Source of the DNA: Escherichia coli
GTDB taxonomy: Bacteria; Pseudomonadota; Gammaproteobacteria; Enterobacterales; Enterobacteriaceae
Direction: 5' to 3' (one strand)
Length of the DNA stretch: 64,000 nt
Assembly: GCF_013122565.1 (NCBI RefSeq)
Contig: NZ_CP053258.1
A model generated the notes under the pieces. The model made no database searches and was not told where the DNA came from. It saw nothing but the letters and a program-made list of their open reading frames with translations. The position numbers and the translations under genes were made by a program. Shown here piece by piece: positions 1-55,234 of the stretch; the first letter of the stretch is position 1, and each line of letters opens with the position of its first letter.

Positions 1-1051
1 CAATTAATTTAAATCTTATTATTTGATTAACAAAGCATCATCATTACTGCATCTTATTCTCTATATCTTTTACGTCGGGGTAGATTCTTTATGGTCATTA
101 CGGGCAGGCGACATTTCATTATATTACCATTTGCATTCACGCTTGTAACCCTTAAGAGTTATATAAAAAGGAAAGAGTTCTTGCTCATGGTATTACTGAG
201 ATCGGATTAACCATGAGGTTAGCTATATAGAGAGCTTTGGCTTTGCGACAATTGGCTTAAGCAGCCACATTATGCCTGGCTTATCGTTGAAAGGGAGAAA
301 GAAGAGCAAAACGGTTTGGCAAGCTTTCATTCCCATCTAATAGCAATCACCGCTATACATCATCCCTTAACGTATTCTGGTCTTCATAAAAATGTTATTC
401 TAAATTAAAGATTGTAATGATTTTAATAATGTTGTTATTATTTTGCAACAAATCAATATAACACAATGATTATTCGCGATTTTTTATTAGTTAAGAGGAA
501 TTGTTTTTACAGATTGCGCTACAATTCCGCTCATTTCTCACCACAGGAAAAGCTGAAGTAATCTTAAATGACTGTATTAACCCTTTTCTCCGCTGCCAGC
601 ACTCTTAAATATCGTTGTTTTATTCTTATAAAAACGGCTTTTTTGACATAAAAAGTAATAGGTTCAGCCATTATGCAGAATTTACAACCTGAGAAAATCG
701 CAAAAAACACTCTTATTCAGAATAAAACTCTGTTTATCATCTTTCGGTAAGCATTAAATTACTATATTACCGTTCAACATGAGTATGAATGAAAATTCAG
801 TTGTTATACATGTGATGAATGTCATATATTGTGCTCATCGATTGCAGGACATCGCTATTCTTTTAGAGATACAGATATCACGCTGTTACTCTCTAATATA
901 AAGAACACGCAAAGATTAGTTGTGTTACTGCAGTTGTTATGTCGCATATGGAATGCCCATTGTTACATCTTTAGTAAAAAGCTTTATTCACTTTCAAAAT
1001 TTTTACTCCATGAAGATAGGCTGTTTTGCTGCAAGCAATTGAGTTAGTGCA

Positions 1052-6990: not shown

Positions 6991-7676
6991 AATCCGTTTT
7001 GCTCCTCTTAACCGTCTTGTTCGTACAGTCAGTGGAAGCCGGCATCATGCCGGCTTCTTCACGGATTATTTATCGCGATGGCGATCGGGAAAAGACACTG
7101 ATGCTGGTCAATACCAATGACTATCCGGTACTGGTGCAAAGTTGGGTAGATAATGGTGAAGGTTCCCCAGAATCTGCTTCTCCCCCCTTTGTGGTGCTGC
7201 CACCGGTTTTCCGCCTGGCTGCGAGACGAACCCAGGGGTTGCGGATTATCTATAATCATGACCCACTTCCCCAGGATCGCGAATCTGCATTCTGGTTAAA
7301 TCTTTATGAAATGCCGCCAGAAACTCCCCATCAAGATCCCACACATTTAACGCTGGCAATGAATACGCAACTTAAAATCTTTTACAGGCCAAAATCTGTA
7401 ACTATGACGCCCCAAGAAGCTATGCGTAAAATAAGTTGGCATCTGGGTAACGACGGCAGCAGTAGCTATATTGAGCTTAATAACCCAACACCACTGAATA
7501 TCTCTTTCACCTCCATCAGCATTGGGGCTACAAAGGTGCAGCAAGAAAGCGATATGATGATAAAACCCTTCAGTCAACGACGGTACTGGTTAGCAAGTAA
7601 TAACGTTAGTGGTGTGGTTGCGGCGACATATCTCGATGATAATGGTGCACAGATAAAACAACAATTAGCGCAATAA
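6987..7676 (+). CDS. Second periplasmic fimbrial chaperone (PapD-like)
   Basis: 229 aa with a signal peptide and the motifs RIIYRDGDREKTLMLVN, LPQDRESAFWLN and LKIFYRPKS. Start codon overlaps the adhesin stop codon, suggesting translational coupling. Confidence 0.8.
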   Translation: MKSVLLLLTVLFVQSVEAGIMPASSRIIYRDGDREKTLMLVNTNDYPVLVQSWVDNGEGSPESASPPFVVLPPVFRLAARRTQGLRIIYNHDPLPQDRESAFWLNLYEMPPETPHQDPTHLTLAMNTQLKIFYRPKSVTMTPQEAMRKISWHLGNDGSSSYIELNNPTPLNISFTSISIGATKVQQESDMMIKPFSQRRYWLASNNVSGVVAATYLDDNGAQIKQQLAQ

Positions 7677-7821
7677 TGCTCTGAGTGGTATGTAAACTCA
7701 TCGCGATGGTTCAACGCTAACGAATAACCACTATACCCACCTGAAGTACCGGAAGTGGAGAAATGACAACATCTCTCCACTCCATTTTCCAGTCAAAACA
7801 CCTCAACGCAGCCAAAAATCG

Positions 7822-8613
7822 TTAACGAATTGAATATCCACCATCAATGACTAATAGTTGTCCATTGACATAATCTGAAGCGGCACTGGCGAGGAACACC
7901 ATTGCGCCCATAAGATCCTGTGCCCTTCCCCAGCGTTGAGCCGGTATACGCCCTTTTATTAACTCTTTTATTTTAGGGTTATTATAAATAATAGCGGTCA
8001 TTTCACTCACATAATATCCTGGGGCGATACCATTAATCTGAATATTATATTCCGCAAAATCATCGGCATACGCTTTGGTCAGCCCCGCTAAAGCATGTTT
8101 AGTCGCCGCATACCCTGGCGACCAACGTCCCCCATGAAATGACAATACGGAACACATATTAATAATTTTCCCTTTTCTTTGCGGGACAAATATATTCAAT
8201 GCGGCCTGGCTCATATCGAATGCAGCATTCAGGTTGAGATTAATCATCGGATCCCAGTCGTTTCGATTGAAATCGATAGGACGATTAAAGTTACACACGC
8301 CCGCGTTATTGACCAGAATATCTAACTGACCGAAACGCTCCAGACACCTATTAATAATGGTGCATGCTGCATCAGGTTTTGTTATGTCTATTGTCATAAA
8401 CTCAACTTCAACGCCTTCATGAGTTAAATGCTTTAAATATCTATTATCAGGCTCTTTGATGTCTACCAACAATAGATTAGCCCCTGCTTTGGCCAGAGCC
8501 GAGCATAAGCCTCTCCCCAGCTCACCCGCGGCCCCAGTTACGATGGCCACCTTGTTATGTAATGAAAAAAAATCCAATGAAAAATCTTCAATAGAAAAGC
8601 TCATATCACACAT
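7822..8613 (-). CDS. Short-chain dehydrogenase/reductase, KduD-like (2-dehydro-3-deoxy-D-gluconate 5-dehydrogenase paralog)
   Basis: 263 aa. Rossmann motif VAIVTGAAGELG, NNAG motif, catalytic Y-x3-K (SPGYAATKHA), and a C-terminus ASDYVNGQLLVIDGGYSIR closely resembling KduD. Start may be the Met three codons downstream. Confidence 0.8.
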   Translation of the reverse strand: MCDMSFSIEDFSLDFFSLHNKVAIVTGAAGELGRGLCSALAKAGANLLLVDIKEPDNRYLKHLTHEGVEVEFMTIDITKPDAACTIINRCLERFGQLDILVNNAGVCNFNRPIDFNRNDWDPMINLNLNAAFDMSQAALNIFVPQRKGKIINMCSVLSFHGGRWSPGYAATKHALAGLTKAYADDFAEYNIQINGIAPGYYVSEMTAIIYNNPKIKELIKGRIPAQRWGRAQDLMGAMVFLASAASDYVNGQLLVIDGGYSIR

Positions 8614-9291
8614 TGCTCCTTATGAGTAAGTAATATTTAAGGGATAATTTAAGTAATTTTTAGATTTCAATAAAAAAATATAAACATTAAAACTCAGCAT
8701 GAATAATAAACATCAAATCTTATATACATTTAAGTAGTGATGTATCACGTAAAAATATAGTCATCATAGATGTTATGCAGTACGCACAAAAAAACAGACT
8801 GGATTTGCTTGCTGATCTATAATCTTTATCTAAATTACTATTGGCGCTTTGGATAATAACATAAGCATATATTACCTCCTAGCAATAATAGACATAACCT
8901 CATATCAAGGTGTCACTGGTAAATAATCGGATAAAGGACAGTACCGGTCGGCACATAGAGCTTCTTCTATTTCACCAGAAGTGCACAGCAGGGAACTACC
9001 AATCACACGGTTAGTGTCATGGGTGGAGGATGCGTCCCGTTCTTTCCCAATAACGGGGATACGCAGTTTTTATCAGTACATGCAGAAAAACCCCTAATTC
9101 ACATCACTGCAGAAAGCATTTAATAGAAATATACATCGTTTAAGAATTTCAATTAAATCAAGATTATTCTTAAAAATCAGATAATTCACATTTGCATTTT
9201 TAGGAAATTATACTATAGTGCAATTAATGTTCTTGCCTTTATTTTGTAAGTAATACTGGATTTGTAATACACAACTAAGGTATAAAATGTA

Positions 9292-10104
9292 ATGATCTAC
9301 ATTATAAATGATGAAGTAAGATTCAACTCATCATCTAATAAGTTAACATCACTCCTTACATCAGAGGAAGTGATACTCACTTATCCTGCGGGAAAATGCT
9401 TAAAATTACTTTTAGATAACGCTTATAGTGTCGTATCGCACAATCAATTCTTTGAAAAAGTCTGGAGCGATAGCAGCGCTGAAGTCGCAACCAATACTTT
9501 ATATCAAAACATTTCGATGATAAGACGCTCCTTTCGTGAAATCAGCTCATCGACGATATTTAATGATATTATCAGAACGGTGCCGCGTAAGGGTTTTAAA
9601 ATCAATGAAGAAATCAACATAACTGTTCTCGACAATAATCATACTGAGAATGAAAGTGTTGAGAGTGAAGAGGATGGTACCCACATTGAAAATATAAATA
9701 AAAATCATGTTGCAAAAGATATTTTCACCACAAAGAATACATTACTTATAGTGTACTTTTTTGCGGCATGGGGGATAGTGTATATATCTTCTTATTTTTT
9801 CGATATGGCTTTTCAAAGCAAAGCTCACACTATAAAAAAAACAGATGCTTTCTCAAATTATGCTCAACATCCTACTCAGGAAGGGTGTAGCTATTTCTAT
9901 GACAATATATATTTTAATTCCGTAGACATGTTATCACCGATTATTGAAAAATTGCAGAAAATGGAAATTAACTGCAAAATACATCCTTACATTTACATTG
10001 CAACAAATGATAGCATGAGCGGGTTTTATGCTTTCACCTGTAGTCAGATGTTAAACTCTGAATCACCAAATAATTGTAATTCTCTCTATTATAAAGCGGA
10101 GTAA
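9292..10104 (+). CDS. Membrane-anchored ToxR/CadC/MarT-like transcriptional regulator (N-terminal OmpR-type winged helix, one TM segment, Cys-containing periplasmic domain); resembles E. coli YqeI
   Basis: 270 aa. Winged-helix signature ...FFEKVWSDSSAEVATNTLYQNISMIRRSF...IIRTVPRKGFKI. Acidic linker followed by a hydrophobic segment NTLLIVYFFAAWGIVYISSYFF. About 100-aa C-terminal domain with four or more Cys. A GG-containing RBS-like motif lies upstream of the ATG. Confidence 0.7.
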   Translation: MIYIINDEVRFNSSSNKLTSLLTSEEVILTYPAGKCLKLLLDNAYSVVSHNQFFEKVWSDSSAEVATNTLYQNISMIRRSFREISSSTIFNDIIRTVPRKGFKINEEINITVLDNNHTENESVESEEDGTHIENINKNHVAKDIFTTKNTLLIVYFFAAWGIVYISSYFFDMAFQSKAHTIKKTDAFSNYAQHPTQEGCSYFYDNIYFNSVDMLSPIIEKLQKMEINCKIHPYIYIATNDSMSGFYAFTCSQMLNSESPNNCNSLYYKAE

Positions 10105-10108
10105 TCAT

Positions 10109-10600
10109 ATGACTCAAAGATATTTTCTATTTGCGGGAATAATTTTATGTGCTTTTATTGCAGCAATTCTTAGCCATATTGCGTTTCATCATGCCAATGA
10201 ACCAGCAGAGCAAAACATATCATGTAATGCCCATGTTATTAATTTCACCGATCATACGAAAATGGATCAATACTTTTCGTTAAATATGATTTCTGAAAAT
10301 AATACAGGGAATATGTATCTCACGGGTGCTTACACGGTAAATGGGAAAAAAATGGGTTTCATCCGCCGATATGTGAGTTTTACATACAAGAAATTCCGTG
10401 ATACCGTTTATTTCACCACAGTTAAAATACAAAAAATACAAAAAGATGATAACATTAGTGATGAAATCCTTGAAAATATCACTTCTGATTTTTTCATAAA
10501 AGTAGACACCTCAATTAATTTTTATGTTACACGTCAAAATGATTACAACTACGTATTCTCTACAGGCAGGACACCACGCTTCATATGTATTTCCCACTAA
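10109..10600 (+). CDS. Small N-terminally anchored periplasmic partner protein (ToxS/FidL/YqeJ-like) of the upstream ToxR-like regulator
   Basis: 163 aa. Starts 4 nt after the upstream stop (coupled). Single N-terminal TM (YFLFAGIILCAFIAAILSHIAF) followed by an Asn/Thr-rich periplasmic domain. Size and arrangement match ToxS/FidL-type partners. Confidence 0.5.
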   Translation: MTQRYFLFAGIILCAFIAAILSHIAFHHANEPAEQNISCNAHVINFTDHTKMDQYFSLNMISENNTGNMYLTGAYTVNGKKMGFIRRYVSFTYKKFRDTVYFTTVKIQKIQKDDNISDEILENITSDFFIKVDTSINFYVTRQNDYNYVFSTGRTPRFICISH

Positions 10601-10700
10601 CAGTAGTGTTGATCATTGCGCTTGTCATCAGATAATAACCTTCTGATGGCTTTGTTTATATTTTAAGGCAATAAAAAACATTCCAATATTGGTTAATTAT

Positions 10701-12215
10701 TTATCTGTTTACATACCACTGATAAAACTCTGTCGCTTTCATTGGTTTTGCATATAAGTACCCCTGAACTAATGTCACGTTATTATGAATAAGATATTCC
10801 GCCTGGTGAGGAGAACTGACACCTTCTGCAATCGTTATCAAATTTAGTCGATTACTCAGCTTAATAATAATATCTAAAACTGGCGTTTCGTCTTCCGCTG
10901 TAGTGAGTGTGTCTATAAAGCTTTTATCTATTTTAAGATAATCAACAGACAACTTTTGTAGAAGGCCAAGGGAACAATATCCCGTGCCAAAATCATCAAC
11001 TGCAAATTCACAGCCATGGATCCTTAATTCATTTATTTTCTGTAATGCAAGATCAGTGTCTTCAACCAGATTGCGTTCGGTAATCTCAAGGACAATATTA
11101 AATTTATCAGATATTGCATTTTTAATATGTAAAACATCAGCAACAAAGTCAGGATGTGCAAGATGTTCCGCGGCAATATTTATCCCAAGGTGAAACGGTT
11201 TTTTCACTTTCCAGCTTTGTACATCCTGAATAATCAGTTCAAAGAGATGCTTAGTTAACGGTATTATTAAATTTTCCTCTTCTGCCGCGCGGATAAAAAC
11301 TACCGGAGATATATTTTTACCATCTTCGCGTTGCCAGCGCATTAACGCTTCAACCCCCAGACACGCTTTGGTTGTCGTGTCGCACACTGGTTGATAATGC
11401 ACAGAAAATTCTCCGGATGACATTCCTTTTTTAATTTCTTCTGCCAGCGACATTTTCCGTGACATCCAGTGCTGCCATAAGAAATAGAGAATAAAAGAAA
11501 GAATAATAGATAACGGCAAAATATAAAGCACATTGCTAATGATATAGGGATATAACGAAATCATCGGCGTAGTAACTGTAAGACGAGCCTGACTGTTCGC
11601 AGAATTAAAATCTCTTTTTAACATATATAACCTGTCATTATTATTTACACCACTAATAATTGCAGGCCCTTCAGTAAAGCGAAGAGAAAATGAATCATCA
11701 TTCTCATCATCAAGAACATCCATTAGATCATAGATATATCGTGACTCGACAATACTAAAAGCTGTCATATTATTCCCTAATGGCATAAGGAACACTATGG
11801 CTGTTTTACCTGGTACAAAACTTGTTCCGCTAATTGATACTATGCGTGATTCTTTATTTTTATTGTGAAAGCTCGTACCGTAAACATCGTTAACATTCAT
11901 TTTTTTGAAACCGCTAACTGAAGAACATATTTGGAAATTATTTTCTATAAGACCCGTTGTTCGAACATAGGGAGTCAATGCTCCGTTAGCAATCAACTGC
12001 TCCAGGATATCTTTGCAGGGTTTCATCACCAGAATAGAAGTAAGCTTTGTCGTATGCTGGACAATTTGCGTAACATTATCAAGCTGTTTTAACAGAATAC
12101 CGGCGGTAATTGTCGTATCTCTATTCATTTGAAATATTGACATAGCAAACGATAGTAACACCCCCAGAATGCCTGGTATTATAATGAGTACAAACATTTT
12201 TTTGTTGAATACCAT
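10701..12215 (-). CDS. pdeT: CSS-motif EAL-domain c-di-GMP phosphodiesterase (PdeT/VmpA-like), absent from K-12
   Basis: ORF 10701..12311. Probable start is the Met at 12215 (MVFNKKMFVLIII...), immediately before TM1. Periplasmic domain with CSS motif (QICSSVSG) and a second Cys, then TM2. EAL domain with intact EAL (GVEALMRW), LEITE and DDFGTGY motifs. The gene name is assigned from memory of the EHEC vmpA/pdeT locus next to dgcT. Confidence 0.75.
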   Translation of the reverse strand: MVFNKKMFVLIIIPGILGVLLSFAMSIFQMNRDTTITAGILLKQLDNVTQIVQHTTKLTSILVMKPCKDILEQLIANGALTPYVRTTGLIENNFQICSSVSGFKKMNVNDVYGTSFHNKNKESRIVSISGTSFVPGKTAIVFLMPLGNNMTAFSIVESRYIYDLMDVLDDENDDSFSLRFTEGPAIISGVNNNDRLYMLKRDFNSANSQARLTVTTPMISLYPYIISNVLYILPLSIILSFILYFLWQHWMSRKMSLAEEIKKGMSSGEFSVHYQPVCDTTTKACLGVEALMRWQREDGKNISPVVFIRAAEEENLIIPLTKHLFELIIQDVQSWKVKKPFHLGINIAAEHLAHPDFVADVLHIKNAISDKFNIVLEITERNLVEDTDLALQKINELRIHGCEFAVDDFGTGYCSLGLLQKLSVDYLKIDKSFIDTLTTAEDETPVLDIIIKLSNRLNLITIAEGVSSPHQAEYLIHNNVTLVQGYLYAKPMKATEFYQWYVNR

Positions 12216-12408
12216 ACATGTTTCCCCACGCATCAGGGTGATGCAACCTAAGAAATTATAGTACAATTGCCAGTAAAAGCGGGTGATAGCAGATTGATCA
12301 ATGATAAGCATTTAAGATCATATAGTACTATGATATTTCTGAAAATTGTTACGCAAGTCTGCGAATAGCTATTTAGCGCTTACCAAAATCACCCGCTAAA
12401 ATGCCGCT

Positions 12409-13767
12409 TCATGGTGACTCACAAAAATTCACCACATCCCTCACAACCACCTTATTACGCCCGGTCTCTTTCGCCTCGTATAGTGCGTTATCAGCCAGTC
12501 GATAGATCTCATTCGGGTTTAACGCATTTTCCTGAGTCACAACAGCGCCAATACTAATCGTCACTTTTTGTGGTATGGCGTATTCAGGATTATCGCCAGT
12601 TAAACGCTCAACATTTTCCCGAATCCTTTCCGCTAAAGCTTTCGCACGTTCAGTATCGATGTCCGTCAGCAAGACGCCAAACTCTTCGCCGCCGACGCGC
12701 GCAAAAAGGTCATCTGGCCGTATGCTTTTCCCAATGATATTCACCACTGTTTTTATCACCTGATCGCCAACCGGATGCCCCCAGGTATCGTTGACTTTTT
12801 TGAAGTGGTCGATATCCATAATCATGACGCAATAAGGCGTTTTTTTGGCTGATGCTGATTGAACTGTCAGTTCATTAAAAAAATAATTTCTGTTAAATAT
12901 ATTGGTTAAGGAATCGCGATGTGCAATGTCCTTTGTTACTCGTAGCGCACTGAATATATGGCACATAAATATTACCATAACGGTTAACTTACTGACTACT
13001 TCAATAGTGCGACTAATATACCAAGTGGACACGCTATACCTGCTCATAAATAACAGAGAGATATTGTACAGTACGGCACAAAAAGCAATCACCGTCACTC
13101 CATTCCAGATATCATAGCGTAAACCATTAAAGTATAGATTAACCGAAAGCAAGGTTAACCACATGAAAATCATTATGGTAACATATGATGTTTTCCAAAC
13201 CACCTGATCATTTTCATTGGTTAACTCGGCAATGTGTAAATTGTAGCTCTCATAATGACTAGAAAGTATGTGAGCAACTATCGGCCCCCCAACAACAAAA
13301 AACAAACTTATGCACAAAGTCATTTTTTTGGAAAATAAATTGCGCTGTTTTGTGTTTTCACTAACTTTACTCACCAATGCCAGAAATATTAATATGCACA
13401 AACTCATCTGACGAAACAAATAATAAATTGCAATGTCATTTTGAACAACACTGCTTGTCAAACGCCCCTCAATAATTTGCTGAATGATAATGACGGTTTT
13501 AACAAAGTAAATCAAACAACTCAGAAAAGCCAAACTAAGTATACAGTTTGAAAATTGCCTACGGTCATAAATGAAATACAACTGCATAAAAATAAATGCA
13601 ACAGTATCGATAAAAAATAAAGCAATCATTACCATCAGATAGGTTGATCGTGGAACAACTTCCTCAACGCCTGGCTGATTAAACCAACTATTCACCAAAA
13701 CCAAAGCAAGCCCAAACAATAAGCTCACTAATACAGTACTACTAATTCTCAAATAGTCTTTTTCCAT
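12409..13767 (-). CDS. dgcT: Diguanylate cyclase DgcT (YcdT): multi-TM sensor domain plus GGDEF domain
   Basis: Near-identical to K-12 YcdT from MEKDYLRISS... (the ORF extends 24 codons further upstream to 13839). GGEEF active site and RPDD I-site are present. Divergent from pgaA, as in K-12. Confidence 0.95.
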   Translation of the reverse strand: MEKDYLRISSTVLVSLLFGLALVLVNSWFNQPGVEEVVPRSTYLMVMIALFFIDTVAFIFMQLYFIYDRRQFSNCILSLAFLSCLIYFVKTVIIIQQIIEGRLTSSVVQNDIAIYYLFRQMSLCILIFLALVSKVSENTKQRNLFSKKMTLCISLFFVVGGPIVAHILSSHYESYNLHIAELTNENDQVVWKTSYVTIMIFMWLTLLSVNLYFNGLRYDIWNGVTVIAFCAVLYNISLLFMSRYSVSTWYISRTIEVVSKLTVMVIFMCHIFSALRVTKDIAHRDSLTNIFNRNYFFNELTVQSASAKKTPYCVMIMDIDHFKKVNDTWGHPVGDQVIKTVVNIIGKSIRPDDLFARVGGEEFGVLLTDIDTERAKALAERIRENVERLTGDNPEYAIPQKVTISIGAVVTQENALNPNEIYRLADNALYEAKETGRNKVVVRDVVNFCESP

Positions 13768-14119
13768 AAAGCTACACCAATCTGTAGGTTGTAGATCCCT
13801 TTCTATTATTAATAGATATAAGAACTGTACTGTTGTCAATATGAAATTCCGACCACAAACAATACCGATGATGATAGTTGCAGCCGCAATTATTATTACC
13901 TTAGTGCTTTATACATTCTTTGCGACAAGACAGGCTTGCAAATACTTATAAATGGTTATAAGGAAATCCTTATGAAACATTAATTCATAGATAGATTAGG
14001 AATAACAATTGAATCCGTGAGTACAGTAACGCTGCATTTCATCAGGACTTTCGAAAAATCCGATATCATGCATCGGAATTTACTGATTTAATTATTTTAA
14101 TCCTAATTTATTTTGAAAA

Positions 14120-14354
14120 AGGCATTGGGATTTATGCCGTATTCCTGAAGATCCTCATCATTGGAATGGATTTTCGGGCGACAAAAGGATTTTATATGGA
14201 CACTCTGCTCATCATTTCTTCTTCTCATCATCAACAATTCACGTCTCTCTTCCGCGTTTAATAACGGATTATGAGGTGCAAAAAATATCTTTCTTTTCAG
14301 TTACCTGTAATTAGATACAGAGAGAGATTTTGGCAATACATGGAGTAATACAGG
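14120..14354 (+). promoter_or_regulatory. pgaA 5' leader with multiple GGA motifs (CsrA-binding type), the last overlapping the SD and start codon
   Basis: Several GGA motifs are seen (ttgggatt, ttggaatggatt, aaaggatt, atatggaca, aacggatt, catggagtaatacaggATG). It is established that CsrA represses pgaA translation via its leader. Confidence 0.5.
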
Positions 14355-16778
14355 ATGTATTCAAGTAGCAGAAAAAGGTGCCCGAAAACCAAATGGGCTT
14401 TGAAAATTCTTACTGCCGCATTTTTAGCAGCGAGTCCCGCGGCGAAGTGTGCTGTTAATAACGCCTATGATGCATTGATTATTGAAGCTCGCAAGGGAAA
14501 TACTCAGCCAGCTTTGTTATGGTTTGCACAAAAATCAGCACTCAGTAATAACCAGATTGCTGACTGGTTACAGATTGCCTTATGGGCCGGGCAAGATAAA
14601 CAGGTTATTACCGTTTACAACCGCTACCGTCATCAGCAATTACCAGCGCGTGGTTATGCAGCTGTCGCCGTAGCTTATCGTAACCGGCAACAATGGCAAA
14701 ACTCGCTTACACTGTGGCAAAAGGCGCTCTCTCTGGAGCCGCAAAATAAGGATTATCAACGGGGACAAATTTTAACCCTGGCAGATGCGGGTCACTATGA
14801 TACTGCGCTGGTTAAACTTAAGCAGCTTAACTCTGGAGCACCGGACAAAGCCAATTTACTCGCAGAAGCTTATATCTATAAACTGGCGGGGCGTCATCAG
14901 GATGAATTACGGGCGATGACAGAGTCATTACCTGAAAATGCATCTACGCAACAATATCCCACAGAATACGTGCAGGCATTACGTAATAATCAACTTGCTG
15001 CCGCGATTGACGATGCCAATTTAACGCCAGATATTCGCGCTGATATTCATGCCGAACTGGTCAGACTGTCGTTTATGCCTACGCGCAGTGAAAGTGAACG
15101 TTATGCCATTGCCGATCGCGCCCTCGCCCAATACGCTGCATTAGAAATTCTGTGGCATGATAACCCAGACCGCACTGCCCAGTACCAGCGTATTCAGATT
15201 GATCATCTTGGTGCGTTATTAACTCGCGATCGTTATAAAGACGTTATTTCTCACTATCAGCGTTTAAAAAAGACGGGGCAAATTATTCCGCCCTGGGCGC
15301 AATATTGGGTTGCGTCGGCTTATCTCAAAGATCATCAGCCGAAAAAAGCACAGTCAATAATGACCGAGCTCTTTTATCACAAGGAGATCATTGCCCCGGA
15401 TTTATCCGATGAAGAACTTGCGGATCTCTTTTACAGCCACCTGGAGAGTGAAAATTATCCCGGCGCGCTAACTGTCACCCAACATACCATTAATACTGCG
15501 CCGCCTTTCCTTCGGTTAATGGGCACGCCTACGAGCATCCCGAATGATACCTGGTTACAGGGGCATTCGTTTCTCTCAACCGTAGCAAAATATAGTAATG
15601 ATCTTCCTCAGGCTGAAATGACAGCCAGAGAGCTTGCTTATAACGCACCAGGAAATCAGGGACTGCGCATTGATTACGCGAGTGTGTTACAAGCCCGCGG
15701 TTGGCCTCGTGCAGCAGAAAATGAATTAAAAAAAGCAGAAGTGATCGAGCCACGTAATATTAATCTGGAGGTTGAACAAGCCTGGACAGCATTAACGTTA
15801 CAAGAATGGCAGCAGGCAGCTGTCTTAACGCACGATGTTGTCGAACGTCAACCGCAAGATCCCGGCGTTGTACGTTTAAAACGTGCGGTTGATGTACATA
15901 ATCTTGCAGAGCTTCGTATAGCTGGTTCAACAGGAATTGATGCCGAAGGCCCGGATAGTGGTAAACATGATGTCGACTTAACCACCATCGTTTATTCACC
16001 ACCGCTGAAGGATAACTGGCGCGGTTTTGCTGGATTCGGTTATGCCGATGGACAATTTAGCGAAGGAAAAGGGATTGTTCGCGACTGGCTGGCGGGTGTT
16101 GAGTGGCGGTCACGTAATATCTGGCTCGAGGCGGAGTACGCTGAACGCTTTTTCAATCATGAGCATAAACCCGGCGCGCGCCTGTCTGGCTGGTATGATT
16201 TTAATGATAACTGGCGTATCGGTTCGCAACTGGAACGCCTCTCTCACCGCGTTCCATTACGGGCAATGAAAAATGGTGTTACAGGCAACAGTGCTCAGGC
16301 TTATGTTCGCTGGTATCAAAATGAGCGGCGTAAGTACGGTGTCTCCTGGGCTTTCACTGATTTTTCCGACAGTAACCAGCGTCATGAAGTCTCAATTGAG
16401 GGTCAGGAACGCATCTGGTCTTCACCATATTTGATTGTCGATTTCCTACCCAGTCTGTATTACGAACAAAATACAGAACACGATATCCCATACTACAACC
16501 CTATAAAAACGTTCGATATTGTTCCGGCATTTGAGGCAAGTCATTTGTTATGGCGTAGCTATGAAAATAGCTGGGAGCAAATCTTCAGCGCAGGTGTTGG
16601 TGCCTCCTGGCAAAAACATTATGGCACGGATGTCGTCACCCAACTCGGCTACGGGCAACGCATTAGCTGGAATGACGTGATTGATGCTGGCGCAACGCTA
16701 CGCTGGGAAAAACGACCTTATGACGGTGACAGAGAACACAACTTATACGTTGAATTCGATATGACATTCAGATTTTAA
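14355..16778 (+). CDS. pgaA: PGA (poly-beta-1,6-N-acetylglucosamine) outer-membrane export porin PgaA
   Basis: 807 aa; matches K-12 PgaA (MYSSSRKRCPKTKWALKILTAAFLAASPAAK...); TPR-rich N-terminal domain and C-terminal beta-barrel. Confidence 0.95.
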   Translation: MYSSSRKRCPKTKWALKILTAAFLAASPAAKCAVNNAYDALIIEARKGNTQPALLWFAQKSALSNNQIADWLQIALWAGQDKQVITVYNRYRHQQLPARGYAAVAVAYRNRQQWQNSLTLWQKALSLEPQNKDYQRGQILTLADAGHYDTALVKLKQLNSGAPDKANLLAEAYIYKLAGRHQDELRAMTESLPENASTQQYPTEYVQALRNNQLAAAIDDANLTPDIRADIHAELVRLSFMPTRSESERYAIADRALAQYAALEILWHDNPDRTAQYQRIQIDHLGALLTRDRYKDVISHYQRLKKTGQIIPPWAQYWVASAYLKDHQPKKAQSIMTELFYHKEIIAPDLSDEELADLFYSHLESENYPGALTVTQHTINTAPPFLRLMGTPTSIPNDTWLQGHSFLSTVAKYSNDLPQAEMTARELAYNAPGNQGLRIDYASVLQARGWPRAAENELKKAEVIEPRNINLEVEQAWTALTLQEWQQAAVLTHDVVERQPQDPGVVRLKRAVDVHNLAELRIAGSTGIDAEGPDSGKHDVDLTTIVYSPPLKDNWRGFAGFGYADGQFSEGKGIVRDWLAGVEWRSRNIWLEAEYAERFFNHEHKPGARLSGWYDFNDNWRIGSQLERLSHRVPLRAMKNGVTGNSAQAYVRWYQNERRKYGVSWAFTDFSDSNQRHEVSIEGQERIWSSPYLIVDFLPSLYYEQNTEHDIPYYNPIKTFDIVPAFEASHLLWRSYENSWEQIFSAGVGASWQKHYGTDVVTQLGYGQRISWNDVIDAGATLRWEKRPYDGDREHNLYVEFDMTFRF

Positions 16779-16786
16779 GGATAAAT

Positions 16787-18805
16787 ATGTTACGTAATGG
16801 AAATAAATATCTCCTGATGCTGGTGAGTATAATTATGCTCACTGCGTGCATTAGCCAGTCAAAAACATCATTTATACCGCCACAGGATCGCGAGTCTTTA
16901 CTCGCCGAGCAACCGTGGCCGCATAATGGTTTTGTGGCGATTTCATGGCATAACGTTGAAGACGAAGCTGCCGACCAGCGTTTTATGTCAGTGCGGACAT
17001 CAGCACTACGTGAACAATTTGCCTGGCTGCGCGAGAACGGTTATCAACCGGTCAGTATTGCTCAAATTCGTGAAGCACATCGAGGAGGAAAACCGCTACC
17101 GGAAAAAGCAGTAGTGCTGACTTTTGATGACGGCTACCAGAGTTTTTATACCCGCGTCTTCCCAATTCTCCAGGCCTTCCAGTGGCCTGCTGTATGGGCC
17201 CCCGTCGGCAGTTGGGTCGATACGCCAGCGGATGAACAAGTAAAATTTGGCGATGAGATGGTCGATCGAGAATATTTTGCCACGTGGCAACAAGTGCGAG
17301 AAGTTGCGCGTTCCCCGCTCGTTGAAGTCGCTTCTCATACATGGAATTCTCACTACGGTATTCAGGCTAATGCCACCGGCAGCTTATTGCCTGTATATGT
17401 AAATCGTGCATATTTTACTGACCACGCACGGTATGAAACCGCAGCAGAATACCGGGAAAGAATTCGTCTGGATGCTGTAAAAATGACGGAATACCTGCAT
17501 ACAAAGGCTAAGGTAAATCCACACGTTTTTGTTTGGCCTTATGGCGAAGCGAATGGCATAGCGATAGAGGAATTAAAAAAACTCGGTTATGACATGTTCT
17601 TCACCCTTGAATCAGGTTTGGCAAATGCGTCGCAATTGGATTCCATTCCGCGAGTATTAATCGCCAATAATCCCTCATTAAAAGAGTTTGCCCAGAAAAT
17701 TATTACCGTACAGGAAAAATCACCACAACGGATAATGCATATCGATCTTGATTACGTTTATGACGAAAACCGCCAGCAAATGGATCGCAATATTGATGTG
17801 CTAATTCAGCGGGTGAAAGATATGCAAATATCAACCGTGTATTTGCAGGCATTTGCTGATCCCGATGGTGATGGGCTGGTCAAAGAGGTCTGGTTTCCAA
17901 ATCGTTTGCTACCAATGAAAGCAGATATTTTTAGTCGGGTTGCCTGGCAATTACGTACCCGCTCAGGTGTAAACATCTATGCGTGGATGCCGGTATTAAG
18001 CTGGGATTTAGATCCCACATTAACGCGAGTAAAATACTTACCAACTGGGGAGAAAAAAGCACAAATTCATCCTGAACAATATCGCCGTCTCTCGCCTTTT
18101 GATGACAGGGTCAGAGCACAAGTTGGCATGTTATATGAAGATCTTGCCGGACATGCTGCTTTTGATGGCCTATTGTTCCACGATGATGCTTTGCTTTCAG
18201 ATTATGAAGATGCCAGTGCACCGGCTATCGCGGCTTATCAGCAAGCAGGCTTTAGCGGGAGTCTGAGCGAAATTCGACAAAACCCGGAGCAATTTAAACA
18301 GTGGACCCGCTTTAAAAGTCGTGCGTTAACTGACTTCACTTTAGAACTTAGTGCGCGCGTAAAAGCCATTCGTGGTCCACATGTTAAAACTGCACGAAAT
18401 ATTTTTGCACTTCCGGTAACACAACCTGAAAGTGAAGCCTGGTTTGCACAGAATTATGCTGATTTCCTAAAAAGCTATGACTGGACTGCTATTATGGCTA
18501 TGCCTTATATGGAAGGTGTCGCAGAAAAATCGGCTGATCAATGGTTAATACAACTGATCAATCAGATTAAAAGCATCCCTCAGGCTAAAGACAAATCTAT
18601 TTTAGAATTACAGGCACAAAACTGGCAGAAAAATGGTCAGCATCAGGCTATTTCTTCGCAACAACTCGCTCACTGGATGAGCCTATTACAACTGAATGGA
18701 GTGAAAAACTATGGTTATTATCCCGACAATTTTCTGCATAACCAACCTGAAATAGACGTTATTCGTCCTGAGTTTTCAACAGCCTGGTATCCGAAAAATG
18801 ATTAA
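16787..18805 (+). CDS. pgaB: PGA N-deacetylase lipoprotein PgaB
   Basis: 672 aa; lipoprotein signal (LTACIS); matches K-12 PgaB. Confidence 0.95.
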
Positions 18806-20123
18806 TCGCATCGTATCGTTTTTTATATTATGTCTGGTGTTATGCATACCCCTATGCGTAGCGTACTTTCACTCTGGTGAACTGATGATGAGGTTCGTTT
18901 TCTTCTGGCCGTTTTTTATGTCCATTATGTGGATTGTTGGCGGCGTCTATTTCTGGGTCTATCGTGAACGCCACTGGCCGTGGGGAGAAAACGCACCAGC
19001 TCCCCTGTTGAAAGATAATCCGTCTATCTCCATTATCATTCCCTGTTTTAATGAGGAGAAAAACGTTGAGGAAACCATACACGCCGCTTTAGCACAGCGT
19101 TATGAGAACATTGAAGTTATTGCCGTAAATGACGGTTCAACAGATAAAACCCGTGCCATCCTGGATCGCATGGCTGCACAAATTCCCCATTTGCGGGTCA
19201 TTCATCTGGCGCAAAACCAGGGGAAAGCCATTGCGCTTAAAACCGGAGCTGCCGCGGCGAAAAGTGAATATCTGGTGTGCATTGATGGCGACGCGTTATT
19301 AGACCGCGATGCGGCGGCATATATTGTGGAACCGATGTTGTACAACCCGCGTGTGGGTGCCGTAACCGGTAATCCTCGTATTCGCACACGTTCTACCCTG
19401 GTGGGTAAAATTCAGGTTGGCGAGTATTCCTCAATTATTGGTTTGATCAAGCGAACCCAGCGTATCTATGGAAACGTATTTACCGTTTCCGGTGTTATTG
19501 CCGCATTTCGTCGCAGCGCCCTGGCAGAGGTGGGTTACTGGAGTGACGATATGATCACCGAAGATATTGATATTAGCTGGAAGCTGCAGTTGAATCAGTG
19601 GACGATTTTTTACGAGCCTCGGGCGCTGTGCTGGATATTAATGCCTGAAACGTTAAAAGGGCTGTGGAAACAGCGCCTGCGCTGGGCTCAGGGCGGTGCA
19701 GAAGTATTCCTCAAAAATATGACAAGGCTATGGCGCAAAGAAAACTTTCGAATGTGGCCACTGTTTTTTGAATACTGCCTGACAACAATATGGGCCTTCA
19801 CCTGCCTGGTCGGTTTCATTATTTACGCAGTCCAACTTGCCGGTGTACCGTTAAATATTGAATTGACACATATCGCTGCGACACATACTGCCGGAATATT
19901 ATTGTGTACGTTATGTTTACTGCAATTTATTGTCAGCCTGATGATCGAGAATCGCTATGAGCATAATCTGACTTCATCGCTTTTCTGGATTATTTGGTTC
20001 CCGGTTATTTTCTGGATGCTGAGCCTGGCAACGACATTGGTATCATTTACACGAGTCATGTTGATGCCTAAAAAGCAACGCGCCCGTTGGGTAAGTCCTG
20101 ATCGCGGGATTCTGAGAGGTTAA
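18798..20123 (+). CDS. pgaC: PGA synthase (GT2 glycosyltransferase) PgaC
   Basis: 441 aa; GT2 motifs ([12 protein letters not shown]); start overlaps pgaB. Confidence 0.95.
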
Positions 20124-20124
20124 T

Positions 20125-20538
20125 ATGAACAATTTAATTATTACGACCCGACAATCGCCAGTACGTTTACTGGTTGATTATGTTGCCACAACCATCTTGT
20201 GGACATTATTTGCTTTGTTCATATTCTTATTCGCCATGGATCTGCTGACGGGTTATTACTGGCAAAGCGAGGCCCGAAGCCGACTTCAGTTCTATTTTTT
20301 GCTGGCAGTGGCGAATGCCGTCGTGTTAATTGTCTGGGCGCTGTACAATAAGCTGCGTTTTCAAAAACAGCAGCATCATGCAGCCTACCAATATACGCCG
20401 CAAGAATATGCAGAGAGCTTAGCAATACCTGATGAGCTCTATCAGCAACTACAAAAAAGCCACAGGATGAGCGTACACTTCACCAGCCAGGGGCAAATAA
20501 AAATGGTGGTTTCAGAAAAAGCGCTAGTCCGGGCATAA
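20125..20538 (+). CDS. pgaD: PGA synthase accessory subunit PgaD (c-di-GMP responsive with PgaC)
   Basis: 137 aa; two TM segments; matches K-12 PgaD. Confidence 0.95.
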
Positions 20539-20587: not shown

Positions 20588-21652
20588 TTAACTGTATGCA
20601 TGTAGCGTACGTTGGCAAAGTGCCGAACGTACGCAATCCTCTTTACCGAATCGGACGATCCCGACCATTTCATCTTCTTCGAAACGTTCCAGTGCGTCAC
20701 TTAATCCGGAGCGCACGCCGCGAGGTAAATCGCATTGCGTGATATCACCGTTAACGATAACCGTCACGTTCTCCCCGAGGCGGGTTAAAAACATTTTCAT
20801 TTGCGCGGCAGTCACATTCTGCGCCTCGTCAAGAATGACAACTGCATTTTCAAAGGTACGTCCACGCATATAGGCGAACGGCGCAATTTCCACCTTCCCT
20901 ATTTCCGGTCGCAGGCAGTACTGCATAAAGGAAGCCCCTAAGCGCCGGACCAGCACGTCGTATACCGGGCGAAAATAGGGAGCAAACTTTTCTGCGATAT
21001 CTCCAGGTAAGAAGCCAAGATCTTCATCGGCTTGCAGAACTGGACGGGTGACGATAATCCTGTCGACATCCTTATGTATCAGGGCCTCTGCCGCTTTTGC
21101 TGCGCTGATCCAGGTTTTTCCGCACCCGGCTTCGCCCGTAGCGAATATCAGCTGCTTACTCTCAATAGCCTTCAGATAGTGCAATTGCGCTTCATTTCGC
21201 GCGAGGATGGGCGAAGTATCGCGACTGTCGCGGGCCATACCAATGGCTTCTACGCCGCTCATCTGCACAAGCGAGGTGACCGATTCTTCTTCACGCTGCT
21301 TATGGCTGCGCGAATCCCGTCTCAGCACACGTTTTGCCTCGCGACGAGCTTTGATCACTGCTTTTTGTCTTCCCATGGAGAGCACCTTGAGTTGTTTGTA
21401 TTCATCACACGCGCCGTTGGCAGCGCGATTATGCGCACGAACATCAGAGGGTTGGCTTCCTTGTAAGCCATAGTTTGCTTTTGGATAAAATGCCGAAAAA
21501 CGGCTACGCGCACCGTTTACGGCGTCGGTAACACATGAAAAGAAAGGATGAGGTTGAAAATGCAAAGTGACGAGATGACTACCGGAGGAGAAAACTCCGC
21601 GAGTGGTGGCGCGTTGATTATCTAAAACATGTCCAGTACAGGACGTTACCAT
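20588..21652 (-). CDS. phoH: PhoH, phosphate-starvation-inducible ATPase
   Basis: 354 aa; matches K-12 PhoH (MVTSCTGHVLDNQRATTRGVF...); Walker A GEAGCGKT. Confidence 0.95.
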   Translation of the reverse strand: MVTSCTGHVLDNQRATTRGVFSSGSHLVTLHFQPHPFFSCVTDAVNGARSRFSAFYPKANYGLQGSQPSDVRAHNRAANGACDEYKQLKVLSMGRQKAVIKARREAKRVLRRDSRSHKQREEESVTSLVQMSGVEAIGMARDSRDTSPILARNEAQLHYLKAIESKQLIFATGEAGCGKTWISAAKAAEALIHKDVDRIIVTRPVLQADEDLGFLPGDIAEKFAPYFRPVYDVLVRRLGASFMQYCLRPEIGKVEIAPFAYMRGRTFENAVVILDEAQNVTAAQMKMFLTRLGENVTVIVNGDITQCDLPRGVRSGLSDALERFEEDEMVGIVRFGKEDCVRSALCQRTLHAYS

Positions 21653-54563: not shown

Positions 54564-54735
54564 GGTCAGTGCGTATTTGCAGCGCGACGTTATCAAAGGT
54601 GATCATCGTCGATTTACAAAAAATACACTTAGCGCCCAAAGGGTTTCGCTCCGTCACATCGAATGCCGATGTACGGTACTGTGAACCATGACAATATGGA
54701 CAGCGGAAATGGAGATGTTGAGTAATAACGGCAAC
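54538..54735 (-). CDS. Possible small zinc-ribbon protein (YmcF-like) immediately downstream of cspG
   Basis: ORF 54538..54798 carries CPYC-x20-CIFC. Its ATG lies inside cspG, so a GTG start just after the cspG stop (giving about 65 aa) is more plausible. Confidence 0.3.
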   Translation of the reverse strand, partial: VAVITQHLHFRCPYCHGSQYRTSAFDVTERNPLGAKCIFCKSTMITFDNVALQIRTDHAPLDFTK

Positions 54736-54736
54736 C

Positions 54737-54949
54737 TTAGAGCGTAACAACGTTCGCTGCCGCGGGGCCACGTTGCCCCTGCTCAATAGAAAATTCAACT
54801 TTCTGATTTTCGTTCAGCGTGCGGAATTCATTGCTCTGGATGGCGGTGAAATGGACGAAAACGTCTTTGCTGCCATCATCAGGAGTGATAAAGCCAAAAC
54901 CTTTATCTGCGTTAAACCATTTTACTAAACCAGTCATTTTATTAGACAT
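54737..54949 (-). CDS. cspG: CspG, cold-shock protein
   Basis: 70 aa, [34 protein letters not shown]... Confidence 0.95.
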
Positions 54950-55234
54950 ATTTTACTTCCTTCATTTTGGGCCTTTCGGCAAACAGGGCTTTAATACAGA
55001 AACTACTTAGTGTTCAGGAGAGAGACTCAAAAGAAGGGGATAATGCCTGATAATGAGAACTGCTTTAGTAAACTACTTTGTATGCTGTCTGTCTTTCAAA
55101 CCGACGCAGCTATTAACGCATGATAATTGAGATTAAGCAAATTTTATTTTAGCCGTCCGGCGGTCTTAAATATCGCTGGCTTTATTTTATTAACCCCGTA
55201 TAGTGCAGCGCAGTATTTTCAGTAAGGAATTTGT

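Follow-up and report, generated by a model that had tools for sequence, protein, structure and literature searches.

The leader of the pgaABCD operon in this Escherichia coli genome is rich in GGA motifs, and the question that it raises is whether these motifs mark control of PGA synthesis by CsrA of the kind described for K-12. The window analysed is a stretch of 64,000 nucleotides in which the pga operon occupies positions 14355-20538 on the + strand: pgaA (14355-16778; 807 aa; Pfam PgaA_barrel), pgaB (16787-18805; GHL13 with Polysacc_deac_1), pgaC (18798-20123; Glycos_transf_2) and pgaD (20125-20538; PgaD). The leader lies directly 5' of pgaABCD and is divergent from dgcT/ycdT (12409-13767, - strand; Pfam MASE4 and GGDEF), a gene order that is the same as in K-12, and ORFs and Pfam domains indicate that all four pga genes and dgcT are full length. 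The K-12 locus has the same 5' untranslated region (UTR), GGAs, Shine-Dalgarno (SD) and AUG sites, rut region and divergent dgcT, but differs beyond dgcT, where the window carries a gene for a CSS-EAL phosphodiesterase of the pdeT/vmpA type (10701-12311, - strand; Pfam) and K-12 carries IS3. LD93-1, with a leader 100% identical to that of the window, also has IS3 instead of pdeT at this position. Divergent transcription of dgcT/ycdT and pgaABCD is published, and in EDL933 vmpA/pdeT lies immediately downstream of ycdT (PMC4287979).

Judged by its sequence, the segment from 14120 to 14357 is the E. coli pgaA leader with its start codon, orthologous to the K-12 pgaA 5' UTR. The K-12 pgaA transcription start is located 234 nt 5' of the ATG (PMC4052769), and leader numbering was set by homology to this start, with 14120 as +1. 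The 5' UTR annotation of Potts 2017 ends approximately 2-3 nt further downstream than the start taken here. The untranslated leader (14120-14354, + strand) is 235 nt long in the window and 234 nt long in K-12, and an alignment with K-12 MG1655 showed that the 235 nt differ by a single substitution and a 1-nt insertion, with 233 of the 234 K-12 positions identical. The insertion is one extra A in +161 to +166, where a run of six A residues (14280-14285, + strand) stands in place of five in K-12; a 40-mer with the A6 run was found in 131 genomes, making this a minor length polymorphism. A 701-nt stretch containing the leader (13800-14500 of the window) is present in approximately 4300 of 5426 complete E. 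coli genomes. The hexamer TATTTT at 14109-14114 on the + strand is, by homology to K-12, probably the -10 element of the NhaR-dependent pgaA promoter, and the failure of a consensus promoter scan to call this promoter is expected of one that depends on an activator. Rfam covariance models gave no match to the leader at gathering thresholds and only chance-level matches at E-values up to 5, and the pgaA leader has no Rfam family of its own.

Eight GGA motifs are present on the + strand between 14120 and 14357, and only three on the opposite strand. They begin at 14128 (+9), 14163 (+44), 14168 (+49), 14187 (+68, CsrA site 1), 14198 (+79, CsrA site 2), 14266 (+147, 14266-14268, within AACGGAUUA), 14342 (+223) and 14353 (+234). 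The motif at +223 belongs to the GGAG of the SD sequence (14342-14345), 9 nt 5' of the ATG, and that at +234 belongs to GGAUG (14353-14357) and shares its A with the pgaA ATG (14355). The original prediction of multiple GGA motifs therefore stands, with eight against a background of 2.7, but the single motif that it placed over both the SD sequence and the start codon resolves into two separate motifs. All eight match the SELEX consensus RUACARGGAUGU, in which the GGA lies in a hairpin loop, at 5-9 of 12 positions; the best matches are +68 (9/12), followed by +9, +223 and +234 (8/12 each), and AUACAGGAUGU at the pgaA start codon is nearly the consensus. For the allele of the window, structure prediction leaves the GGAs at +9, +68 and +79 single-stranded.

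Such richness could be incidental, a product of base composition and an ordinary SD sequence that has no regulatory role past ribosome binding. Across 238-nt sliding windows on both strands of the 64 kb, the GGA count has a mean of 2.7 (sd 1.6) and reaches at least eight in only 0.5%, which argues against this explanation, and mononucleotide shuffling of the leader gave a mean of 2.5 (P = 0.0009). Dinucleotide-preserving shuffling, however, gave a mean of 5.3 (P = 0.07), indicating that the excess is largely carried by richness in the GG and GA dinucleotides, and a GGA belongs to any strong SD sequence. Both points are consistent with an incidental origin, which is contradicted by the biochemical, genetic and CLIP-seq evidence for CsrA on the K-12 sequence (PMC4052769, PMC5694010).

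The K-12 pgaA leader has six CsrA sites, the two distal ones lying over the SD sequence and the AUG and being needed for translational repression, according to the accounts of Wang 2005 given in PMC4052769 and PMC7652899. The GGAs of the window over the SD sequence and over the initiation codon agree with this description. Deletion of +61 to +81, within which the +68 and +79 GGAs of the window fall, removes the two upstream-most K-12 sites; binding nucleates at the first site, and mutation of site 1 in a +1 to +137 RNA leads to the loss of all CsrA binding (Figueroa-Bossi 2014, PMC4052769). In vivo, the CsrA CLIP-seq peak extends from +18 to +136 with its read maximum at approximately +79/80, on the +79 GGA (PMC5694010, Supplementary Data 1). 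When the GGAs of the window were compared with the mapped K-12 sites, those at 14187, 14198, 14342 and 14353 coincided with published positions, the CLIP-seq maximum falling on 14198, so that the mismatch named in the original prediction as its refutation did not occur. Three of the eight (+9, +44 and +49) are outside the six published sites, though those at 14163 and 14168 are inside the CLIP peak; the +147 GGA is outside the peak. This last motif is probably published site 3, and ACAGAGAGAGA (14317-14327, + strand), which holds no GGA, is possibly published site 4.

On this evidence, the leader is very likely the pgaABCD mRNA leader of E. coli acting as described for K-12, and we infer CsrA action on it in the strain of the window. 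CsrA bound to the GGA sites over the SD sequence (14342) and the start codon (14353) would keep the 30S subunit off the mRNA. The proposal that CsrA represses PGA synthesis at the level of translation is borne out by the K-12 literature on the SD and AUG sites together with a near-identical leader; it is already known, and it omits an arm of the control that acts through Rho-dependent termination. In K-12, CsrA unmasks a Rho entry site in the pgaA leader and brings about termination via the two upstream sites (PMC4052769).

A footprint comparison was performed on eight sequences from six lineages, including two Citrobacter species; a PgaA scan of the genome collection supplied four loci, and further relatives were obtained by protein search and contig look-ups. 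The GGAs at +9, site 1 (+68) and the AUG site are invariant in the six lineages, Citrobacter included, as is UACAGGAUGUAU at the start codon in all eight sequences, and the SD GGA is retained in five of six lineages, being GGGG in L011. The GGAs at +44, +49, +79 and +147, by contrast, are not conserved in related lineages: those at 14163 and 14168 are missing from Citrobacter and L011, that of site 2 persists in only three of the six lineages, and neither the divergent E. coli lineage nor Citrobacter NCU1 has the one at +147. Conservation of sites 2 and 3 thus does not extend beyond typical E. coli, suggesting that they are dispensable in relatives, and the AGAGAG core of ACAGAGAGAGA is retained in divergent E. 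coli lineages. Turnover of half of the motifs speaks for an incidental GGA richness, but amid diverging surroundings four GGAs persist from one genus to another, three of them without any change, and an incidental origin is scarcely credible. At PgaA identities of 58% or less, leaders could not be aligned (metagenome contig L012, Enterobacter, Klebsiella, Kluyvera, Serratia, Atlantibacter and C. portucalensis). Seven of nine distant leaders have a GGA within approximately 30 nt of the start codon, Atlantibacter and C. portucalensis having none, which is weak evidence since SD sequences are GGA-like anyway.

The termination arm centres on an anti-terminator hairpin at +61 to +107. Its left arm (+61 to +81; 14180-14200, + strand) contains CsrA site 1 (14187-14189) and site 2 (14198-14200), and its right arm (+82 to +107) together with a C-rich rut region reaching approximately +130 spans 14201-14249 (PMC4052769). 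For K-12, the hairpin and the rut region at +82 to +130 are backed by mutants and by Rho termination in vitro (PMC4052769), and the C-rich, G-poor rut region of the window is identical to that of K-12 in the alignment. CsrA bound at +68 and +79, on the left arm of this marginally stable hairpin, would melt it; the C-rich Rho entry site on the right arm would then be exposed, and Rho would terminate transcription within the leader.

An upstream ORF (uORF) of 21 codons (MDTLLIISSSHHQQFTSLFRV*), read from the sequence at 14196-14261 on the + strand, offers a different account of the same sites. The site 2 GGA overlaps its AUG and the site 1 GGA lies 6 nt 5' in an SD-like position, so that sites 1 and 2 are arranged on the uORF like the SD and AUG sites on pgaA. 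CsrA at site 1 (SD-like AAGGA) and site 2 (AUG at 14196) would repress translation of the uORF, which covers the rut region; Rho would load when ribosomes are absent, and the hairpin would be secondary. The conservation of AAAGGAUUUNAUAUG from E. coli to Citrobacter is consistent with such attenuation, as is a frame that is preserved in L020 despite a deletion of 3 nt and in L011 although the AUG is displaced by 6 nt, but a frameshift in Citrobacter NCU1 leaves a uORF of 10 codons, and in the K-12 sequence, read by eye, all three frames are open over the C/U-rich stretch, which makes an open frame uninformative. Codon-position counts reveal no third-position or synonymous bias among substitutions between lineages, and a conserved uORF leader peptide was rejected as a candidate on the lack of such an excess. 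Mutation of the uORF AUG leaves pgaA expression unaffected, whereas mutants that stabilise or destabilise the hairpin act as the structure model predicts (Figueroa-Bossi 2014, PMC4052769), and attenuation by the uORF is accordingly very improbable.

Within the hairpin, the structure model meets the one substitution that separates the window from K-12. Position +63 (14182, + strand), which lies in the middle of the bottom stem GAGAA/UUCUC, is C in the window and G in K-12, and among 5426 complete E. coli genomes C was found in two and G in 4076. The substitution disrupts the G-C pair at the centre of this stem and raises the predicted minimum free energy (MFE) of the hairpin from -6.4 to -1.6 kcal/mol, and position 63 is predicted to be the most destabilising among the 141 possible single substitutions in the hairpin. 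The predicted probability of being unpaired at +95 to +107 rises from 0.28 to approximately 0.6, the right arm itself being unchanged from K-12. On these folding predictions, a C at +63 should weaken the hairpin and bias the switch towards termination, and since the central bottom-stem pair is removed, the CsrA-dependent anti-termination arm may differ from that of K-12. A more tentative reading is that Rho termination in the leader would become largely independent of CsrA and PGA production would be lowered.

The invariant GGA at +9 lies in the loop (14128-14130) of a 5'-terminal hairpin, GGCAU-UGGGAUUU-AUGCC (14121-14138, + strand), which has a predicted energy of -6.7 kcal/mol, a predicted probability of 0.99 that the loop GGA is unpaired, and the SELEX match given above. 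All eight sequences compared retain the loop GGA and the four core pairs, with one compensatory change, G-C to A-U, and counts of covariation in the eight sequences did not exceed those of shuffles. The +9 GGA could help to load CsrA on site 1, or could shield the 5' end of the mRNA. One CsrA dimer can bridge sites 10-63 nt apart, and in each of the eight sequences the +9 and site 1 GGAs lie 58-61 nt from one another. The +9 GGA may be read as a seventh CsrA contact, its conservation across Escherichia lineages and Citrobacter equalling that of site 1 and the AUG site, and this distance being within dimer range. A possible analogy is provided by flhDC, whose mRNA is shielded from RNase E by CsrA bound at two sites at its extreme 5' end (PMC7652899); the outcome there is activation, unlike at pgaA, CsrA binding at the pgaA 5' hairpin is unreported, and the +1 to +137 RNA with a mutated site 1 bound no CsrA (PMC4052769). 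Taken jointly, the 5' hairpin GGA as a seventh contact and G63C as a natural 'destabilised hairpin' mutant form a tentative pair of readings, and a rather unlikely one. A further stable hairpin is predicted in the MFE structure at +25 to +59 (14144-14178, + strand) and contains the GGAs at 14163 and 14168, with predicted unpaired probabilities of 0.5 and 0.0-0.03, respectively.

Integration of the leader with the adjoining c-di-GMP module, which had also been proposed, is already published: CsrA represses GGDEF genes, and PgaCD is allosterically activated by c-di-GMP (PMC7652899). Reviews confirm both the CsrA model and its multi-tier link to c-di-GMP (PMC7652899, PMC12360218). Under this model, CsrA would also lower PGA output by an indirect route, in which it represses NhaR, an activator, and the GGDEF cyclases, dgcT among them, whose c-di-GMP would activate the PgaCD synthase. 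The E. coli glgC leader is a classical target of translational repression by CsrA, with four sites compared with six in pgaA and, unlike pgaA, no Rho-dependent attenuator described in the review. In Yersinia pestis, the counterpart of pgaABCD is hmsHFRS. PMC8406273 describes a biofilm polysaccharide that depends on c-di-GMP from HmsT and HmsD, with CsrA acting on hmsT mRNA; the effect of CsrA reported there is positive, through hmsT mRNA and Hfq, unlike that on pgaA.

The pgaA leader finding re-discovers the textbook multi-tier post-transcriptional control of biofilm polysaccharide synthesis, and nothing new follows from it. The division between conserved GGAs (+9, +68, AUG and, in five of six lineages, SD) and lineage-specific ones bears on why the leader has so many sites, a question posed by Figueroa-Bossi 2014. 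The C at +63 is a natural allele at the base on which the hairpin is predicted to depend most, and a wild isolate that carries it may serve to test the hairpin model without further construction.

The pgaA gene (14355..16778, + strand) has an 807-aa product carrying a PgaA beta-barrel domain and is followed 3' by pgaB, pgaC and pgaD, in that order, on the Pfam and ORF reading, and dgcT/ycdT (12409..13767) lies on the opposite strand (-) and encodes a MASE4-GGDEF protein. Among 5426 complete E. coli genomes, approximately 4300 match a 701-nt stretch containing the leader, each time at pgaA. The K-12 pgaA transcript starts 234 nt 5' of the ATG (PMC4052769), and leader position +1 was therefore placed by homology at 14120, coinciding with the feature start in the original prediction. 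Alignment of the 235 nt 5' of the ATG with K-12 MG1655 reveals two differences: a G to C substitution at 14182 (+63) and one additional A in the A-run at 14280-14285. This run is A6 here versus A5, the A6 form being present in 131 complete genomes, and strain WP3-W18 carries A9.

Eight sense-strand GGA motifs are present within 14120-14357, at 14128 (+9), 14163 (+44), 14168 (+49), 14187 (+68), 14198 (+79), 14266 (+147), 14342 (+223) and 14353 (+234), in agreement with the multiple motifs originally predicted. The GGA at 14342 belongs to the Shine-Dalgarno (SD) sequence GGAG and that at 14353 ends in the A of the ATG, so that two separate motifs, and not the single one proposed, cover the SD and start codon. 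Equal-length windows over the 64 kb contain a mean of 2.7 GGAs and reach 8 in only 0.5% of cases, and the count has P = 0.0009 under mononucleotide shuffling and P = 0.07 under dinucleotide-preserving shuffling. The observation is real, with an enrichment that is moderate to strong according to the null model.

The pgaA 5' UTR contains six CsrA sites according to the mapping of Wang et al. (2005), as related in PMC4052769 and PMC7652899; the distal pair, one over the SD and one over the AUG, is required for translational repression. Figueroa-Bossi et al. (2014, PMC4052769) located the two upstream-most sites in +61..81, the left arm of a hairpin (+61..107) of marginal stability. A C-rich Rho entry site at +82..130 has the right arm of this hairpin as its 5' half. 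When CsrA binds, the hairpin melts and Rho-dependent termination is induced; mutations that destabilise the hairpin reduce expression whether or not CsrA is present, and those that stabilise it increase expression. This model is still given in a 2025 review (PMC12360218). CLIP-seq identified one pgaA 5' UTR peak, +18..+136, whose reads are highest 56 nt in from its left edge, at approximately +79/80 (Potts et al. 2017, PMC5694010), which corresponds to 14198-14200. The +61..81 arm contains the GGAs at 14187 and 14198, and the SD and AUG sites correspond to those at 14342 and 14353; these four GGAs therefore coincide with mapped CsrA sites, contrary to what would have refuted the prediction. 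The GGA at 14266 is probably published site 3 and the GGA-less ACAGAGAGAGA at 14317-14327 possibly published site 4, and the GGAs at +9, +44 and +49 lie outside the published six, because the two upstream-most of these are in +61..81. The feature is thus a well-characterised regulatory leader that was correctly recognised: CsrA-mediated translational repression of PGA synthesis, as proposed, is correct and known already, and the proposal omitted the termination arm.

The suggested integration with the neighbouring c-di-GMP module also holds and has been published: repression of GGDEF genes by CsrA and allosteric activation of PgaCD by c-di-GMP have together been termed multi-tier regulation (PMC7652899), and ycdT is divergently transcribed from pgaABCD (PMC4287979). 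The dgcT start codon (13763-13767, - strand) is overlapped by a GGA (AUGGA), and a GGGA lies approximately 30 nt upstream in the dgcT leader. CsrA has been reported to target dgcT/ycdT directly.

Immediately downstream of dgcT is a gene for a 536-aa CSS-motif and EAL phosphodiesterase (10701-12311, - strand). Its placement matches the O157:H7 vmpA/pdeT arrangement, whereas K-12 and LD93-1 carry IS3 and ymdE remnants in its place. Positions 7000-13000 are at least 80% covered in approximately 400 of 5426 genomes. LD93-1 alone has a leader with 100% identity to this one, yet the region beyond dgcT is of the pdeT-containing type here and LD93-1 has no pdeT; 7000-14500 looks like a mosaic. The dgcT-pgaA intergenic part upstream of approximately -56 (13858-14064) differs from K-12 at approximately 25 positions, and the core promoter and 235-nt leader at three. 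A perfect inverted repeat, TCCGAT-N7-ATCGGA (14059-14077, approximately -61..-43 of the pgaA promoter), is kept in Escherichia lineages and is a candidate activator site; a scan also flagged it as terminator-like on the minus strand. The known pgaA activator is NhaR. Elsewhere, Rfam matches comprise full-length Ysr251 (20593-20786, + strand, 188 bits), just past pgaD and antisense to the phoH 3' end, and the cspA thermoregulator (54683-55105, - strand, 158 bits), presumably the 5' UTR of a cspA-family cold-shock gene.

Leaders were alignable from five further lineages, giving six lineages and eight sequences overall. The five are a divergent lineage of E. coli (SW07164 and SCPM-O-B-8794, ~81% nucleotide identity), the lineages L020 (PgaA 79% identical) and L011 (77%), Citrobacter sp. 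Awk 4 and Citrobacter sp. NCU1. Leaders from more distant genera were not alignable. A 382-nt contig assigned to Tannerella forsythia ATCC 43037 (contig049, NZ_JUET01000049.1) aligns over its whole length with E. coli pgaA, from the promoter through the leader into the first codons, with a single T to G difference from K-12 in the leader, and is almost certainly E. coli contamination of that assembly. The GGAs at +9, +68 (site 1) and the AUG are invariant in the six lineages, with UACAGGAUGUAU the same in 8/8 sequences at the last, and the SD GGA is present in five of six (GGGG in L011). The divergent E. coli lineage lacks the GGAs of site 2 (+79) and +147; L020 and both Citrobacter also lack the former and NCU1 also lacks the latter, and those at +44 and +49 are both missing from L011 and Citrobacter.

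A 21-codon upstream ORF (14196..14261, + strand) spans the Rho entry region; its AUG is overlapped by site 2, and site 1 is positioned like an SD. Its frame survives a 3-nt deletion in L020 and a 6-nt AUG shift in L011, and substitutions between lineages show no codon-position bias. A regulatory uORF was tested and dismissed by Figueroa-Bossi et al. (PMC4052769).

At the extreme 5' end, a hairpin is predicted at 14121-14138 (-6.7 kcal/mol) with the +9 GGA in its loop; four core pairs are retained in 8/8 sequences, with one compensatory G-C to A-U change. The +9 and site 1 GGAs are 58-61 nt apart in all compared sequences, including Citrobacter, where the intervening sequence is unalignable, and this spacing falls within the 10-63 nt that one CsrA dimer is able to bridge (Mercante 2009, as cited in PMC4052769). 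Against +9 as a CsrA site, +1..137 RNA with site 1 mutated loses all CsrA binding (PMC4052769), and the left end of the CLIP peak is +18 (Potts et al. 2017).

C63 is a rare allele, the 40-mer containing it being present in 2 of 5426 genomes (LD93-1 and NCTC9967) and the G version in 4076. G63-C105 is the middle pair of the bottom stem GAGAA/UUCUC, and ViennaRNA gives the +61..107 hairpin -6.4 kcal/mol in K-12, LF82 and O157, -6.0 in another E. coli variant, -4.4 in the divergent lineage and -1.6 here. No single substitution among the 141 possible in +61..107 is predicted to destabilise the hairpin more than the three at position 63, and with C63 the segment +95..107 is predicted to be unpaired with a probability of ~0.6, up from 0.28. 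By analogy with published destabilising mutants, the C63 allele should show more termination and less CsrA dependence. L020 likewise has C at this position and U at the partner position, so strict conservation of the stem does not extend beyond typical E. coli. Of all these leads, only the rare C63 allele and the conserved GGA of the 5' hairpin merit specialist attention.
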